From: a virus
Lineage: Duplodnaviria; Heunggongvirae; Uroviricota; Caudoviricetes
Length of the DNA: 17,035 nt
IMG/VR virus record: IMGVR_UViG_2671180417_000010
Span: 1-17,035 of that record
Reading direction: 5' to 3' (one strand)
Shown piece by piece: positions 191-16,569 of this stretch. Numbering within the stretch: position 1 is the stretch's first letter; each line of letters begins with the position of its first letter. The notes under the pieces are model-generated. The model was given only the letters and a program-made list of their open reading frames with translations. It had not been told where the DNA came from and made no database searches. The position numbers and the translations under genes were made by a program.

Positions 191-208
191 GAAACAACGT
201 GGAACAAA
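191..208 (+). promoter_or_regulatory. Two 10-bp-phased GAACAA-type units (GAAACAACGTGGAACAA) next to the left terminal repeat
   Basis: Same unit as the arrays at 7651..7680, 13911..13930, 14143..14188 and 15535..15554. Confidence 0.4.
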
Positions 209-286
209 TAGACACAAGAAATATACAGGCGGATCATCTTTCCAGGGGGAAGCGCACCAATTCATGAGGGGCGTTAATGTCGATAT

Positions 287-3101: not shown

Positions 3102-3389
3102 ACTTATTTTTTCGCCAGATTATTTTTCAAAAAATTCCCGTGCATAAAAATTTGAGGAGGCGGTCGGTGCCCGGCGGGGTCGGGTTTGTCCTGAAAACGC
3201 CCCCCACCCCGTCATACAGCCTCATCAGCGATTGCGGAAACATTCCATAACCTCGCGGTCACGGTCGGTTAATCGCTTCGCTGTGATGCGTTCTGCGCGT
3301 CCTGACGCTTTATCTTTATGCCCTGTTTCCTGTGTCTTCATGCGTCACGCTGCCTTATAAGTCCACGGATAAGGCGGTTTTGTTCCCGC
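3102..3389. other. HNH-terS intergenic region; candidate cos site
   Basis: 288-bp non-coding gap with a GC-rich segment (GGAGGCGGTCGGTGCCCGGCGGGGTCGGG) and repeated GGTCGG/CGGTC motifs. In HK97-type cos phages the cohesive-end site lies between the HNH gene and terS. The exact cos position is not determinable from sequence. Confidence 0.3.
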
Positions 3390-3830
3390 TCATTCATCAG
3401 CGTCATACATCCAGTTATTGCGGTTAGCGGCCCGTTCTTCCTCTTCACGAAATCCACCTGCGGCACGCTTGCTTTTTGTTGCCGGATCAAGCCATTTCGT
3501 TTTCTGGTTATGACACGCCTGACACAATGGTTGATGGTTCCATTCGGGCCAGAAGAGAACATCATCACCGCCATTAATCGGGATAATGTGATCCACCACC
3601 ACGGCGGGCGTATATATCCCCTTCTCAAGGCATCGCACGCATAACGGGTTTTTACTCAGATACATGGCGCGGTATTTGTCCCACTGTCTGGAGTACCCAC
3701 GCGCGCGGCGGTGTCCTCGTCTGGCATCCTCTGCACGCCATGCCGCCCGCCTGTGCTCCTCACACTTGCCGGATTTAACGCGCCTGTTACAGCCTGGTTC
3801 TGTGCATCGTCTTAATGGTTGCCACGGCAT
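3390..3830 (-). CDS. HNH endonuclease (packaging-associated)
   Basis: 146 aa. N-terminal Cys cluster (CTEPGCNRRVKSGKCEEH) and HNH core VDHIIPINGGDDV...CQACHNQKT. Start ATG overlaps the connector stop (TAATG-type junction). Confidence 0.85.
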   Translation of the reverse strand: MPWQPLRRCTEPGCNRRVKSGKCEEHRRAAWRAEDARRGHRRARGYSRQWDKYRAMYLSKNPLCVRCLEKGIYTPAVVVDHIIPINGGDDVLFWPEWNHQPLCQACHNQKTKWLDPATKSKRAAGGFREEEERAANRNNWMYDADE

Positions 3831-6228: not shown

Positions 6229-6282
6229 AATTTTTTCACCTGTAAAACAGAGAAGGGGCTTTTTAGCCCCTTCGGTGTGCTG

Positions 6283-7440
6283 TTAATCGTCGTCCTGCGG
6301 CAGTTCCAGAATCTTTATAGCGTTCGAATCCACCACGCCACCGCCTAAATATTTCTGCGTGAAAATTTTGATAAAGCCCGGCTCTGTCAGGTTGTCCGGT
6401 CTGGTGCGCACGCCCGTTTCATGATCAACGATGTAATAACCGCGTTTGAAGTCACCCAGGGCGATAACGTTATCCGGCATAAATTCCAGATACTCCACCG
6501 GAAGCCCCAGCAACGTATCAGGATCACCCGCCTGTAAACGGTCGCGCCAGATGTAATCGCCGTTCGCGTTCTTCACCTTCTGAAGTTTTGCCGCCGTCGT
6601 GGAGTTAACCACCCAGACCGCGTTTTTGCGGTATTTTTTACGTAATGCAAATTTCAGGTCGATCAGCGGGTCCGCAGATGTCCACGCCAGAGATTCGGAA
6701 GGTTTAATTACCTGCAACGTACCAAAATCACGCTCTTTGTCGTTCTTCTCTGCACGGGGTACGGATAAAAAACCTTTTGCTTTTTTGTCACCGTCGCCCA
6801 CAACCAGATCGCTTTCTTCGGTTTCCGTGAAGGTGTCGCCAATCTCACCCGTCAGCCATGAAAGGATGTCCACATCGGAAAAATCCACGATTTCCTGTGT
6901 GGTGCGCGGGTACGCATAGACCGGATACAGCTTAATGCTCACCTCGTTAATCTGCGGGGTGCTGGTCTGTTCGCGTGCCTTACCCTCTTCACCGTGGTTA
7001 ACGGTCGCACCGCCAGCGGAAACAAGCTGCTTAAACTCGTTGCTGCTGATTTTCTTCACGGTACAGATGCGGCGCATGGTGGATTCATCCGCCAGCATTC
7101 GCATGATTTCGGTGTTCAGTTCAGGGATAACGGTATAACCACCATCAGCGGGAACGCCTGTACTTAATGCGCGGGTTTCACCGGTCAGAATGTAGTTGCG
7201 TAGTTCTGCGGGGTCAGTGGTCTGGCTGCTTTTACCTGGCTTGCTGCGCTCTTCGTCTGCAATGGCTTCAAGGCGGGAAATGTCTTTATCGAGGGATTCA
7301 GCTTTAGCGCGTAATTCGTCAAATTTTGCGCCCTCAGCATCGTTAAGACTGCGGTTTTCTTTTTCCGCGTTCTCCAGCATGTCGCGCATCTGATTTTTAA
7401 TGGCGGTTTTCTGCTGGCGTAATTCGATTATTCTCGGCAT
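6283..7440 (-). CDS. Major capsid protein (HK97 fold) with N-terminal delta/scaffold-like domain
   Basis: The ORF-track start at 7488 is a GTG lying inside an upstream hairpin. The first ATG is at 7438..7440 (MPRIIELRQQ...) with AGGA 8 nt upstream. N-terminal coiled-coil (IIELRQQKTAIKNQMRDMLENAEKENRSLNDAEGAKFDELRAKAESLDKDISRLEAI) plus C-terminal LLGLPVEYLEFMPD region typical of HK97-type capsid proteins. Confidence 0.8.
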   Translation of the reverse strand: MPRIIELRQQKTAIKNQMRDMLENAEKENRSLNDAEGAKFDELRAKAESLDKDISRLEAIADEERSKPGKSSQTTDPAELRNYILTGETRALSTGVPADGGYTVIPELNTEIMRMLADESTMRRICTVKKISSNEFKQLVSAGGATVNHGEEGKAREQTSTPQINEVSIKLYPVYAYPRTTQEIVDFSDVDILSWLTGEIGDTFTETEESDLVVGDGDKKAKGFLSVPRAEKNDKERDFGTLQVIKPSESLAWTSADPLIDLKFALRKKYRKNAVWVVNSTTAAKLQKVKNANGDYIWRDRLQAGDPDTLLGLPVEYLEFMPDNVIALGDFKRGYYIVDHETGVRTRPDNLTEPGFIKIFTQKYLGGGVVDSNAIKILELPQDDD

Positions 7441-7477
7441 AAAAAAAGTCCTGGGATTAAGTAAGGAACTCCAGGAC
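7441..7477 (-). promoter_or_regulatory. Hairpin plus U7 immediately upstream of the capsid start codon; the stem includes the capsid SD
   Basis: Minus strand reads GTCCTGG-(16 nt loop)-CCAGGAC-TTTTTTT-ATG. The 3' stem half CCAGGAC contains the AGGA Shine-Dalgarno. Seen directly. Confidence 0.45.
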
Positions 7478-7531
7478 GCGGCAAACACTCAACCGTTTTT
7501 CATAAGGAAATCAGCAATCGCACCGATCGTT

Positions 7532-7577
7532 TTCCCGCCTGGTAATGAATATTGGCGAGCACATTAACAGGCGGGAA
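7532..7577. promoter_or_regulatory. 16-bp imperfect inverted repeat (TTCCCGCCTGGTAATG / CATTAACAGGCGGGAA) with 14-bp spacer in the capsid-operon leader
   Basis: Arms at 7532..7547 and 7562..7577, one mismatch. Either a dimeric-regulator operator or a long RNA stem in the late leader. Confidence 0.45.
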
Positions 7578-7650
7578 AGTGGCCCCAGCGTCCTGGCACC
7601 ACGGGCGAGAATACTCATGATTCAGTTCGGGTAAAATATGCCGATCCTGT

Positions 7651-7680
7651 CAGTGAACAACGTGGAACAACCACGAACAA
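7651..7680 (+). promoter_or_regulatory. Three perfect 10-bp-phased GAACAA units (cagtGAACAA cgtgGAACAA ccacGAACAA); candidate activator-binding array for the capsid/late operon
   Basis: Read directly. Located just downstream (in the transcription direction) of the early-operon terminator and about 210 bp upstream of the capsid start. Confidence 0.5.
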
Positions 7681-7689
7681 ATAATTTAC

Positions 7690-7720
7690 AAAAAATGACA
7701 AAAAGCCGGATTTCTCCGGC
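7690..7720 (-). terminator. Rho-independent terminator after the PerC-like gene
   Basis: Minus strand reads GCCGGAGAAATCCGGC (6-bp GC stem, 4-nt loop) followed by TTTTTGTCATTTTTTGT. Hairpin 7705..7720 starts 8 nt after the stop at 7728. Confidence 0.65.
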
Positions 7721-7727
7721 TGTGTGC

Positions 7728-15490: not shown

Positions 15491-15523
15491 TGACTACACC
15501 AGTGACTACACCGATCGTTGCAC
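15491..15523. repeat. Right copy of terminal direct repeat (TGACTACACC x2 + GATCGTTGCAC), 26 bp upstream of the int start; candidate att junction
   Basis: See 153..185; 31 of 33 identical. Confidence 0.4.
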
Positions 15524-15534
15524 AAAGGGCTACA

Positions 15535-15554
15535 ACGTGAAACAAGCTGGAACA
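15535..15554 (+). promoter_or_regulatory. Two 10-bp-phased GAACAA-type units (GTGAAACAA GCTGGAACAA) 70-90 bp upstream of int
   Basis: Read directly. Same orientation relative to its gene as the array at 7651..7680. Confidence 0.45.
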
Positions 15555-15722
15555 AGGAAAATCACAAATCTGTTGATAATCAAAAACATAATGCACAGCC
15601 TGAAACATTATGAAACAGCAAAAAACACTAAATGATAAAATGCTGTTATTGATTCACGGCCTGGCTTAACGATAACCAGACCGAGTTCCGGTACCAGAAC
15701 AGGTCGAAGTAATACCCGCACA

Positions 15723-16168: not shown

Positions 16169-16324
16169 TTACTCCTCAGGTTCGTAAGCTGTGAAGACAG
16201 CGACCTCCGTCTGGCCGGTTCGGATTCGTACCTCGCAGAGGTCTTTCCTCGTTACCAGTGCCGTCACTATGACGGTGATACAGATGACGATCAGGGCGAT
16301 TAACATCGCCTTTTGCTGCTTCAT
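16169..16324 (-). CDS. hok: Hok/Gef-family type I toxin (small membrane peptide). The in-frame upstream extension to ATG 16381 corresponds to a mok-like frame.
   Basis: 51 aa: MKQQKAMLIALIVICITVIVTALVTRKDLCEVRIRTGQTEVAVFTAYEPEE. Hydrophobic helix followed by the conserved RKDLCE...TGQTEVAVF...AYE pattern of Hok/Gef toxins; closest by recollection to HokC (Gef). The 70-aa ORF 16169..16381 (MLDICRLASYAPKGKEKQA + Hok) resembles MokC organisation. Confidence 0.8.
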   Translation of the reverse strand: MKQQKAMLIALIVICITVIVTALVTRKDLCEVRIRTGQTEVAVFTAYEPEE

Positions 16325-16569
16325 AGCCTGCTTCTCCTTGCCTTTCGGCGCGTAAGAGGCTAACCTACATATGTCTAGCATGAAATTGGCCTCAGATTAA
16401 TGTTAGGCGTCTTGCAGGACGCGTAATGTTAACTGGGGCTTTTCTCTGTCTGCCTTACGGTGGCATGCCCGAGGCAGACAGCCTCAAGCACCCGCAGCAA
16501 TTCTACTTAACTCTCGCTTTACCGCAAACCGTTTTTACCCGATATGGGAATTCCCATATCGTAATGAAT

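Follow-up and report, generated by a model that had tools for sequence, protein, structure and literature searches.

Excisionases can double as regulators of transcription by way of helically phased direct repeats, as P2 Cox does on the P4 late promoter PLL and 186 Apl does as well. Sequestration of a translation-initiation region that is relieved by alternative pairing is known from ermC-type attenuators and from the phage Mu mom leader, which is opened by Com.

Capsid-forming PICIs (cf-PICIs) need no helper phage to build heads of their own, and cross species by borrowing tails. Since tail-less cf-PICI capsids form without any helper phage (10.1101/2025.02.11.637232), either the island or the host must supply the regulators of head production. 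The islands have AlpA as their master activator, and excision requires it (PMC6092414, PMC11773190, 10.1101/2022.09.08.507074). It activates its own promoter and island genes (PMC6092414, PMC11773190), and an excisionase role is documented for AlpA-family proteins (PMC5148205). In the cf-PICI papers that we searched there is no account of a promoter, terminator or leader of the packaging operon, and the literature searched contained no transcription start, 3' end or protein-binding data for the capsid-operon control region. The switch-on of head production in cf-PICIs is undescribed in this literature. Our analysis pins the control point to approximately 290 bp, within which it names three boxes, a predicted promoter, three hairpins and an alternative pairing of 9 nt. 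We propose that the capsid-to-terminase packaging operon is controlled in three layers, namely insulation, activated transcription and a leader RNA gate, and we give this proposal an even chance of being right.

The island and its capsid operon

The window, i.e. the whole stretch of 17,035 nucleotides that was analysed, is an EcCIEDL933-like cf-PICI. Such islands are recognized by int, alpA, a primase/replicase gene and a capsid-to-TerL set, together with the absence of tail and lysis genes and a size of about 15 kb. Pfam matches in the window included capsid, protease, portal, connectors, HNH, TerS, TerL, a DUF927 primase, AlpA and integrase, and together with synteny to the O157 island these gave the int, alpA, primase/replicase and capsid-to-TerL set. 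Gene set and order are the same as in the prototype cf-PICI EcCIEDL933 (10.1101/2022.09.08.507074). The window island differs from it in its upstream module, where a PerC-like gene lies directly at the terminator, and in its neighbourhood, with hok/sok beside int.

The leader is 98-99% identical to that of the O157:H7 island sited between phoQ and roxA, and roughly 8% of complete E. coli genomes carry the window version. In the phage collection, relatives of the leader occurred only in cf-PICI-like records and the window version was absent altogether. We compared the leader with about 100 distinct leaders from other cf-PICIs, and counted its geometry over 102 distinct regions. All coordinates refer to the plus strand, and every feature of the control region reads on the minus strand. 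In order of transcription, these features are:

7693..7721, minus strand: predicted intrinsic terminator (stem/loop and T-run) ending the variable upstream module (PerC-like gene); mosaic joint
7681..7695, minus strand: Block A, conserved motif TTTTTTGTAAATTAT, roughly -80 to -94 relative to the predicted start of transcription
7655..7680, minus strand: three TTGTTC boxes, 10-bp spacing, candidate AlpA sites, about -54 to -79
7608..7635, minus strand: predicted weak sigma-70 promoter, -35 TTTACC (7635-7630), 16-nt spacer, -10 TATTCT (7613-7608)
7579..7602, minus strand: H1, 5'-terminal hairpin GUGGUGCCAG-GACG-CUGGGGCCAC with an invariant GACG loop, -15.6 kcal/mol
7531..7578, minus strand: H2, long hairpin abutting H1, -22.6 kcal/mol
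7471..7479, minus strand: region 3, GCGUCCUGG, the 5' strand of H3 with an invariant CGUC; perfect 9-nt complement of region 1 in H1
7441..7477, minus strand: H3 (7477-7448), predicted to bury the Shine-Dalgarno AGGA, followed by U7 (7447-7441), -12.4 kcal/mol
6283..7440, minus strand: major capsid gene, HK97-type (Pfam Phage_capsid, E = 1.6e-61), ATG at 7440-7438; first gene of the operon under the proposed control
6252..6273, minus strand: strong hairpin in the capsid-protease intergenic gap, with a stem of 9 bp and a weak T-run behind it; perhaps a partial terminator, perhaps a stabiliser of the mRNA 3' end

Terminator, boxes and promoter

A sequence-only reading of this DNA had described a strong terminator ending the upstream operon, a threefold GAACAA array and an insulated head module, and all three were borne out. 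The terminator lies where it had been placed. Its hairpin, AGCCGGA-gaaa-TCCGGCT (7721-7704, minus strand), is followed by TTTTTGTCATT and begins 6 nt past the PerC-like stop codon at 7728. With 7 pairs (5 of them G-C), a 4-nt loop and T5 it has the make-up of an intrinsic terminator and is predicted to be one; the terminator pattern scan by itself was not significant (3 sites versus 2.2 expected). Other lineages have different stems and a T-run at the equivalent position. Homology with the O157 islands ends at 7727, exactly at this terminator, as the claim of insulation would have it. As the first layer of the proposed control, the terminator would halt transcription arriving from the variable upstream module.

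Across about 100 cf-PICI leaders, a conserved unit comprises the motif TTTTGTAAATTAT, three boxes of GTTC type spaced 10 bp apart, a predicted weak sigma-70 promoter and a three-hairpin leader RNA. Block A was present in nearly all of them, the distance from TGTAAA to H1 was 86-88 nt in 101 of the 102 distinct regions, and a divergent E. coli island retains only Block A and the boxes. On the minus strand, the GAACAA array reads as perfect TTGTTC boxes at 7680-7675, 7670-7665 and 7660-7655, exactly 10 bp apart; a three-box scan would be expected to find 0.0-0.15 arrays of this kind per locus. In the window, the two-box pattern has 11 occurrences, as opposed to 1.8 expected, a number reached by none of 200 shuffles. 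Nine of these 11 sites belong to the leader of the capsid gene, the promoter region of alpA, the spacer between int and alpA, the arm upstream of int and the far island end, and related islands have the same box layout. The gene and box arrays concerned are:

13681..13869, minus strand: alpA, a 62-aa Phage_AlpA HTH protein (Pfam E = 5.4e-17), candidate binder of the boxes and activator
13906..13929, plus strand: box array GTGTC / TTGTGTC / TTGTTC, just upstream of alpA
14144..14196, plus strand: box array in the int-alpA spacer, with five to six units
15530..15555, minus strand: box array upstream of int, adjoining two GGTGTAGTCA repeats (15491-15512)
192..217, minus strand: box array near the other end of the island, adjoining two GGTGTAGTCA repeats (153-174)

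The first 20 nt of the array between int and alpA match the capsid-leader array at 19 positions, spacers included. The two repeats at 15491-15512 resemble arm sites of an integrase. Helically spaced direct repeats, three or more in number, are found upstream of the predicted promoter and again at recombination sites. Because TTGTTC arrays recur at both island ends, upstream of int and upstream of alpA, AlpA is the best candidate for, and most likely, the box binder and activator. Three different AlpA types, 49-68% identical to the window AlpA, are found in islands that keep identical TTGTTC leader boxes, which suggests that the binder could be another conserved protein or a host protein. Clear TGTTC end arrays occur only in islands whose Int/AlpA are at least 66-67% identical. 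We also considered that the box sequence might co-vary with AlpA or Int type, and this comparison was not clear-cut. The activity of the int promoter was unchanged by AlpA of EcCICFT073 (PMC6092414).

Scored as a sigma-70 promoter, for which the hexamers at -35 and -10 should be 16-18 nt apart, the predicted promoter has 8/12 matches, which is below the scan threshold. Its position is fixed relative to the leader: a TAnnnT hexamer lies exactly 5 nt before H1 in 102/102 regions, and TTTAC[TAC] is found at 16 nt from this hexamer in 55 of the 102. Antitermination of the Q type involves a binding element between -35 and -10 as well as a sigma-dependent pause; in this interval of the predicted promoter, a TCATG is conserved in some lineages only. 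Transcription is predicted to start near G7602. In the second layer of the proposed control, this weak promoter (TTTACC, 16 nt, TATTCT) would fire only with an activator on the three boxes, which at about -55, -65 and -75 would all face the same side of the helix. AlpA would be the likeliest activator, since the same boxes flank the attachment sites and precede int and alpA. The head module had earlier been read as a late unit under positive control. Its own predicted weak promoter and the phased boxes upstream fit this reading, and the activation itself we infer. Pairing of the promoter region with the start codon, which would block read-through transcripts, was rejected: the window has 8/8 and 10/11 matches, yet a median of 43% of shuffles do equally well (95 distinct regions).

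The PerC-like gene directly upstream had been named as the nearest candidate late regulator, in which case its product would be the late activator that binds the boxes. The gene is adjacent to the leader, and its family is annotated as transcriptional activator. However, a PerC homologue is found upstream in only 11 of the 61 islands that keep the leader, compared with AlpA in 53 of 61, and the region around PerC varies. The break in homology falls between the leader and the PerC-like gene, and other islands have unrelated genes in this position, e.g. a ProQ/FinO-family gene. The attachment sites, int and alpA have the boxes as well, and these are places where one would expect an excisionase. 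In addition, a passage in PMC11773190 cites the finding that a known PerC target is unaffected by the PerC-like genes of EcCIEDL933 and EcCICFT073. We therefore set the PerC-like gene aside as an extremely unlikely activator, and retain AlpA as the candidate.

The three-hairpin leader RNA

The RNA folding check suggested along with the sequence-only reading came out in its favour: the whole leader folds better than shuffles (z = -4.06), and 0/200 shuffles fold as well. For the window leader, the fold of the sense strand is more stable than that of the antisense strand by 11.6 kcal/mol. H1 contains region 1, CCAGGACGC (7596-7588), and has asymmetric internal loops. Of its cells, 99.6% are paired, and 5 pairs change on both sides, and the sequence itself is extremely conserved beyond the pairing. 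H2 had been described as an inverted repeat of 16 bp with a 14-bp spacer. The repeat is real and its spacer correct, and the arms (7531-7547 and 7562-7578, 94% complementary, 14 nt between) are 17 rather than 16 nt long. The H2 stem sequence is lineage-specific yet complementary, with 7 of 8 basal pairs changing on both sides. For H1 and H2 together, 94.8% of cells are paired versus 79.2% in shuffles, and the covariation score is 0.486 versus 0.203 (0/500 shuffles), with slid controls at or below 0.094. A covariance model built without the window lineage had its top window match at 7492-7610 (minus strand; 21.4 bits, E ~3e-4). No Rfam family matched at the gathering threshold, and at E-values up to 10 there was only noise in 7400-7760. 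The leader is a conserved, unannotated RNA motif that can be used as a marker for cf-PICIs.

The same inverted repeats might act as DNA, either as operators of a dimeric repressor or as a packaging (cos) site. H1 at +1 to +24 has a typical operator position, and no cos site of cf-PICIs was located in the cf-PICI literature searched. Conversely, G-U pairs are frequent in the H1 and H2 stems, and on the other strand they would be A-C mismatches. The asymmetry of the internal loops of H1 also argues against a DNA-level role, as do the H2 stems, which are wholly different between close relatives; a shared DNA-binding protein would not tolerate this. A gap of 288 bp separates HNH and TerS, which we take to be the place where cos is expected in HK97-type systems, and we counted this against a DNA-level role as well. 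Considering these points, action as DNA is very improbable, and we treat the hairpins as RNA.

The 7-bp stem with AGGA in front of the capsid ATG, followed by seven U, is present as the sequence-only reading had described it, and the gating of capsid translation that had been attached to it agrees with our folding models. The H3 stem is formed by GUCCUGG (7477-7471) and CCAGGAC (7454-7448) and continues in an inner helix of 3 bp; its 3' strand contains the AGGA Shine-Dalgarno (7452-7449). The mean unpaired probability of the ribosome site is 0.20, versus 0.51 with shuffled upstream sequence. The ribosome site is paired in the default fold of the window, L004, L090 and L048 classes, and a hairpin of different sequence also occludes it in other lineages. 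The occlusion was not significant in two other classes and was absent in Gilliamella-type islands. Within the main class, H3 is conserved without double changes. U7-U8 follows H3 in all window-class leaders and is missing from other classes. A stable hairpin with an adjacent U7 has the make-up of an intrinsic terminator, and H3 is predicted to be one in the window; a simple terminator scan did not detect it because of its inner helix and 8-nt loop. On the folding models, H3 looks like a sequestor of the ribosome site that resembles an intrinsic terminator in the window lineage.

In the third layer of the proposed control, the transcript would start at H1, run into H2 and end in H3, burying the Shine-Dalgarno. 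As H3 is followed by U7 in the window lineage, the default state should there both terminate transcription and block translation. The transcript of about 160 nt from promoter to U7 might instead be a trans-acting small RNA, since it would have a 5' hairpin and a terminator as its 3' end. Most lineages are without the U-run, however, and hence would make no discrete RNA. It has no known target, and its complementarity to the island C4 RNA is no better than chance. We find this explanation scarcely credible, and prefer a leader that acts in cis.

Region 3 is where such a leader could be opened. The duplex of regions 1 and 3 has an energy of -17.1 kcal/mol, and for a region this large, chance alone would give about 0.3 perfect complements of 9 nt. 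The H1 tip (GACG) is complementary to the H3 5' strand (CGUC) in all three sequence classes; both motifs are invariant in 53/53 leaders, and their flanks change together. Of the cells in the alternative helix, 81.4% are paired, versus 26-50% in slid controls. One of its column pairs is U-A, C-G or G-C across the three classes and never unpaired, which represents three lineages only. Per-sequence duplex energies are unexceptional (median z -1.4). A second capsid query and a metagenome pattern scan brought no new H1/H3 classes, and the scan contained one sequence that is mismatched at the covarying position. From the sequences, the H1:H3 pairing suggests an alternative that would free the ribosome site. 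The H1 tip (CCAGGACGC) copies the Shine-Dalgarno-bearing strand of H3 and could pair with the H3 5' strand (GCGUCCUGG); this helix would keep H3 from forming, and the gate would open.

A leader without any switch would account for part of these observations. H1 would then simply stabilise the 5' end, like the hairpin of the ompA leader, H2 would serve as a spacer or as an RNase III site, and H3 would hold translation or read-through at a constant low level, with all regulation at the promoter. H1 does start at the predicted 5' end, and the H1-H2-H3 fold is the minimum-energy structure in nearly all leaders, the alternative being 4-8 kcal/mol costlier. The evidence for the alternative helix also comes from few independent lineages. 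However, this explanation leaves both the invariant GACG/CGUC with its co-changing flanks and the conservation of the H1 sequence beyond pairing unexplained, and a strong occlusion of the ribosome site would be costly for the most abundant virion protein. We judge it unlikely, and favour the switchable gate.

In a bolder version of the gate, H1-H2-H3 would be an undescribed class of cis-regulatory RNA specific to capsid-forming satellites. The invariant H1 would be read by a trans factor that tips the balance of folds by flipping H1:H3, thereby setting termination and translation of capsid. We attach a low probability to this version. If true, an H1 read in this way could explain the spontaneous making of capsids without a helper phage. 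Such a factor might be another protein of the island, or the capsid or procapsid protein in its free form, which would amount to feedback. Two other triggers were considered and rejected. Duplexes between the island C4 antisense RNA and the leader are no better than those with shuffled leaders. For a leader peptide of the ermC/trp type, an ATG in the spacer is equidistant from H1 in two classes and absent in L072, L075 and L087; a 35-codon ORF in the window is not conserved.

Comparison with known systems

Like lambda PR'-tR' with Q and P. aeruginosa PalpB-tB with AlpA (PMC7969949, PMC9371919), the window island combines a promoter with a leader of some 160-190 nt and, just before the first late gene, an intrinsic terminator; promoter and terminator are predicted ones here. 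It differs from these systems in having no Q-like protein and in a terminator that is lineage-specific. Q-type factors reach into the RNA exit channel with an N-terminal ring domain (PMC9371919), and in the 62-aa island AlpA we found only the Phage_AlpA HTH. An earlier analogy with the late-operon control of lambdoid phages is not supported for this reason. P. aeruginosa AlpA has only the name in common, since the island AlpA does not match its chains.

The layout of the leader also recalls processive antitermination. H1 and H2 would then do what put RNA does in HK022, or would serve to load a protein factor, and polymerase would read through U7 and the post-capsid hairpin, with the H1-H3 pairing incidental. 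As described for put (PMC9378689), where two hairpins lie no more than 1 nt apart directly after the promoter, two stem-loops 0-1 nt apart lie directly past the predicted start. Two terminator-like hairpins, 7441-7477 and 6252-6273, stand in the path, and the extreme conservation of the H1 sequence would fit as well. However, the leader has no sequence resemblance to HK022 putL, a comparison that revealed no homology, and no Rfam match, and its H2 stem varies freely. The U-run after H3 is limited to the window lineage, whereas H1 and H2 are kept in lineages without it. The island AlpA also lacks the ring-forming domain shared by Q and P. aeruginosa AlpA (PMC9371919), and is similar to no PDB chain except a 73-aa AlpA-family protein. 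Antitermination is thus less probable than a leader without a switch, and well behind the three-layer control that we propose.

The leader resembles those of the ermC/mom type in that it has the Shine-Dalgarno in a hairpin and an upstream segment that can pair with the anti-Shine-Dalgarno strand; it differs from the ermC type in having no conserved leader peptide. At the promoter, the resemblance is to Cox at PLL and to Apl: the window island likewise has a small excisionase-type HTH protein, and phased repeats at the attachment sites and upstream of a predicted satellite late promoter. An earlier analogy with P2/P4 holds in this specific sense, i.e. that of an excisionase-type protein using phased direct repeats. 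AlpA is offered as a candidate link between excision and head synthesis. In contrast to Cox at PLL, the protein family is Phage_AlpA, the box sequence is another one, and the candidate activator is the satellite's own rather than the helper's.

Identity of the island

Read from the int side, the minus strand of the window carries in turn the gene of a tyrosine integrase that includes an arm-binding domain, alpA (a Phage_AlpA protein of 62 aa), a C4 antisense RNA together with its a1/b1 targets, and genes for DUF4222, a DUF927 primase, an SSB and a PerC-like protein. Downstream of the leader follow an HK97-type capsid, an S78 protease, a portal, head completion and connector proteins, HNH, TerS and TerL. 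The gene set is that of a capsid-forming PICI (cf-PICI). The leader is 98-99% identical to that of an E. coli O157:H7 island located between phoQ and roxA, whose position and content are those of the prototype EcCIEDL933 (10.1101/2022.09.08.507074), and it has matches in 431 of 5426 complete E. coli genomes. A hok/sok toxin-antitoxin pair lies directly beyond the integrase end (16169-16493, minus strand; Hok Pfam match; sok 114 bits), so the window copy must occupy a site other than the phoQ-roxA one of O157:H7. Rfam places the C4 RNA at 12374-12461 (minus strand, 69 bits) and the a1/b1 sites at 12529-12578 (minus strand, 46.8 bits). Judged by these matches, they form a P1/P7-type immunity module, and an Icd-like gene is annotated at the C4 position in related islands. 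A P1-like c4/icd switch on a cf-PICI may bear on induction by P1-type helpers.

The promoter unit and its boxes

To compare leaders, capsid-upstream regions were gathered from genomes (12 loci), viral contigs (160) and metagenomes (110), taking in Shigella, Rosenbergiella, Citrobacter, Erwinia and Gilliamella. One architecture is common to about 100 distinct leaders. A sequence-only reading of the window had described a terminator, a repeat array, an inverted repeat and a hairpin sequestering the capsid Shine-Dalgarno (SD), and all four were found where it had placed them. The window leader comprises:

7721-7704, minus strand: terminator stem-loop before the leader, followed by T5
7680-7655, minus strand: three perfect TTGTTC boxes, 10 bp apart
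7635-7630, minus strand: predicted -35, from the position of TTTAC[TAC] in the comparative set
7613-7608, minus strand: predicted -10, from the position of TAnnnT in the comparative set
near G7602, minus strand: predicted transcription start, from the -35/-10 placement
7602-7579, minus strand: hairpin H1, GUGGUGCCAG-GACG-CUGGGGCCAC
7578-7531, minus strand: hairpin H2, abutting H1; inverted repeat with 17-nt arms (7531-7547 / 7562-7578) and one mismatch
7477-7448, minus strand: hairpin H3, with AGGA in its 3' strand, then seven U and the ATG at 7440

Cf-PICI leaders carry the motif (T)TTTGTAAAT(T/A)AT, followed by three GTTC-like boxes at 10-bp spacing. A TAnnnT hexamer stands exactly 5 nt before the first hairpin in all 102 distinct regions (TATCTT in 53, TATGTT in 20, TATATT in 12 and the window's TATTCT in 9), with TTTAC[TAC] 16 nt upstream of it in 55, and TGTAAA and the first hairpin are 86-88 nt apart in 101 of the 102. 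The boxes sit at about -54 to -79 relative to the predicted start. The sequence-only reading took the head module for an insulated unit under positive control, and both ideas held up. The predicted window promoter matches 8 of 12 consensus positions and falls below the scan threshold, which would suit an activator-dependent promoter. Similarity with the O157 islands breaks off at 7727, where the terminator has its foot; the terminator therefore marks a mosaic joint, the downstream unit travelling with the head genes. A divergent E. coli island has only the motif and boxes in common with the window.

In most other lineages the terminator stands between the boxes and the -10 hexamer instead. In three related loci (L004, L034 and L049) and most non-E. 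coli loci, a terminator hairpin and T-run lie ~40-70 nt before the hexamer, and the T-run supplies the -35 region. The order thus differs from the window, where the terminator is upstream of the motif, but the parts are the same. In one E. coli island (L002), the variable slot immediately before the leader holds a gene for a ProQ/FinO-family RNA-binding protein (6320-6862).

In the window, the two-box pattern was counted 11 times where 1.8 were expected, and none of 200 shuffles had as many. Nine of the 11 occurrences fall in five places, the capsid leader and four other arrays, listed here with the neighbouring repeats:

13906-13929: box array just upstream of alpA
14144-14196: box array between int and alpA; identical to the leader array at 19 of the first 20 nt, with the spacers counted
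15530-15555: box array upstream of int
192-217: box array at the far end of the island
153-174 and 15491-15512, both minus strand: two GGTGTAGTCA direct repeats per site, 12 bp start to start, ~20 nt from a TTGTTC-type array

The arrays at 15530-15555 and 192-217 each adjoin two GGTGTAGTCA repeats, and these repeats at both island ends are probably integrase arm-type sites. The box layout is repeated in related islands; arm-type repeats vary with integrase type in other islands, and a TTGTT(C/T)-like phased array persists. A recombination directionality factor with a second role in transcriptional control would be expected to have its sites distributed in this way. PICI excision and induction depend on AlpA, which also activates its own promoter (PMC6092414, PMC11773190), and AlpA-family proteins function as excisionases (PMC5148205). 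Tail-less cf-PICI capsids were formed in a strain without helper phage (10.1101/2025.02.11.637232), so the activator must be island- or host-encoded. The array distribution, these published roles and helper-free capsid formation make AlpA the leading candidate for binding the boxes and activating the promoter. Two observations call for caution: the leader boxes are identical across islands with three AlpA types, and clear island-end arrays are confined to islands whose Int and AlpA share at least 66-67% identity with those of the window. The PerC-like protein, named in the sequence-only reading as the nearest candidate late regulator, is a poor candidate, since its gene is upstream in 11 of 61 islands versus 53 of 61 for AlpA.

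A weak box-like match with two mismatches (3380-3395, plus strand) lies in the 288-bp HNH-TerS gap, the expected place of an HK97-type cos site. TGGTGAACAG iterons 3' of the primase gene in two related islands (L020, 6112-6143; L024, 5697-5728) are probably a replication origin, distinct from the TTGTTC boxes.

Leader RNA and the ribosome site

The 300-nt stretch folds far better than its shuffles (z = -4.06). H1 reads GUGGCACUCA-GACG-UGAGCCGCCAC in most other islands and GUGACACUCC-GACG-GGAGCCGUCAC in a third class, and the H2 stem differs in sequence in every lineage with complementarity always kept. In a 53-sequence alignment, 94.8% of the cells of H1 and the H2 base are paired versus 79.2% in shuffles, with a covariation score of 0.486 versus 0.203 (0 of 500 shuffles; slid controls ≤ 0.094). 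The G-U pairs frequent in these stems point to RNA on the minus strand, the sense strand of the leader. The sense strand folds 11.6 kcal/mol better than the antisense in the window and is the more stable in 36 of 53 leaders. A covariance model from the other classes only had its best window match at 7492-7610 (minus strand; 21.4 bits, E ~3e-4), and no Rfam family matches the leader.

Gating of the capsid gene, as previously proposed, is in line with the folding model. In the window, H3 (-12.4 kcal/mol) buries AGGA, giving a mean unpaired probability of 0.20 over -16 to +3 versus 0.51 with the upstream sequence shuffled; accessibility was as low in 2 of 60 shuffles. The main class has a different hairpin, UGGUUUC..GAAACCA, which ends 4-6 nt before the AUG and is conserved and 92% paired, with no double changes. 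The same folding test gave reduced accessibility in the main class and two further classes, and did not in two other classes or the Gilliamella type. U7-U8 follows H3 in the window class only, where modelled H3 plus U7 looks like an intrinsic terminator touching the start codon. In frame with the capsid ORF and 21 codons upstream, AUG AAA AAC GGU UGA (7489-7503, minus strand) is similar to the AUGAAAAAA with which the capsid gene starts in other lineages, and was aligned at that start by the covariance model. This AUG may be left over from an earlier start site; if so, H3, U7 and the ATG in their present form are later additions or have been reshaped.

The H1 tip, CCAGGACGC (7596-7588), copies the SD-bearing strand of H3 and is fully complementary to that hairpin's 5' strand, GCGUCCUGG (7479-7471). 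Here the main class pairs AGACGUGA with UCACGUCU, and the third class pairs GACGGGA with UCCCGUC, where a U-to-G change is matched by A-to-C. All 53 aligned leaders have GACG and CGUC unchanged, and the 12-pair alternative helix is 81.4% paired versus 26-50% in slid controls. One of its column pairs is occupied by U-A (39 leaders), C-G (12) or G-C (2), and no leader is unpaired there. Forcing the helix costs 8.0, 4.3, 5.1 and 5.2 kcal/mol in four classes, and the duplex energies alone are unremarkable. We propose that this helix would exclude H3, which would free the ribosome site and remove the terminator. A weakness of such a switch is that there are only three independent classes; two further searches for H1/H3 sequence classes gave no new class and one mismatch.

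Ten islands (L040, L041, L043, L045, L046, L052, L054, L057, L058 and L060) keep the motif, boxes and promoter (TTTTTCATG..GTTAAAT) with a short leader of ~35 nt without H1-H3, so some members of the family do without the RNA gate. The leaders of three other islands (L055/L056 and L048) are unrelated in sequence, yet each has a 5' segment that is a copy or a complement of the strand at the ribosome site, an example being UCAUGCAGG, present twice in L055. These leaders also have a mid-leader hairpin with a U-run, and may have come to the same design independently. A 106.5-kb record submitted as a phage genome (L176; PQ569648.1, Klebsiella phage P12620-1) also has a main-class leader and capsid gene at its end, which may be an island captured in assembly.

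Comparison with known control systems

No description of this capsid-operon control unit was found in the literature searched. The analogy with lambdoid late control did not survive: the sole PDB match of the 62-aa island AlpA is a 73-aa chain of the AlpA family, and control of the lambda-Q or P. aeruginosa AlpA kind was rejected. In P. aeruginosa AlpA, unlike the island protein, the N-terminal domain is ring-forming and the HTH lies near residues 128-142 (PMC9371919). A leader-peptide attenuator was likewise rejected for the cf-PICI leader. Some room is left for reading the leader as an antitermination element, as a strong hairpin after the capsid gene (6273-6252) lies in the path. This 9-bp GC-rich hairpin (minus strand), followed by a weak T-run, stands between the capsid stop and protease start codons and may set the capsid-to-protease ratio. 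Put RNA has a two-hairpin layout like H1/H2, but despite this similarity it is not homologous and was rejected as a relative. The leader region is the conserved control unit of the cf-PICI head operon, assembled from known kinds of parts.
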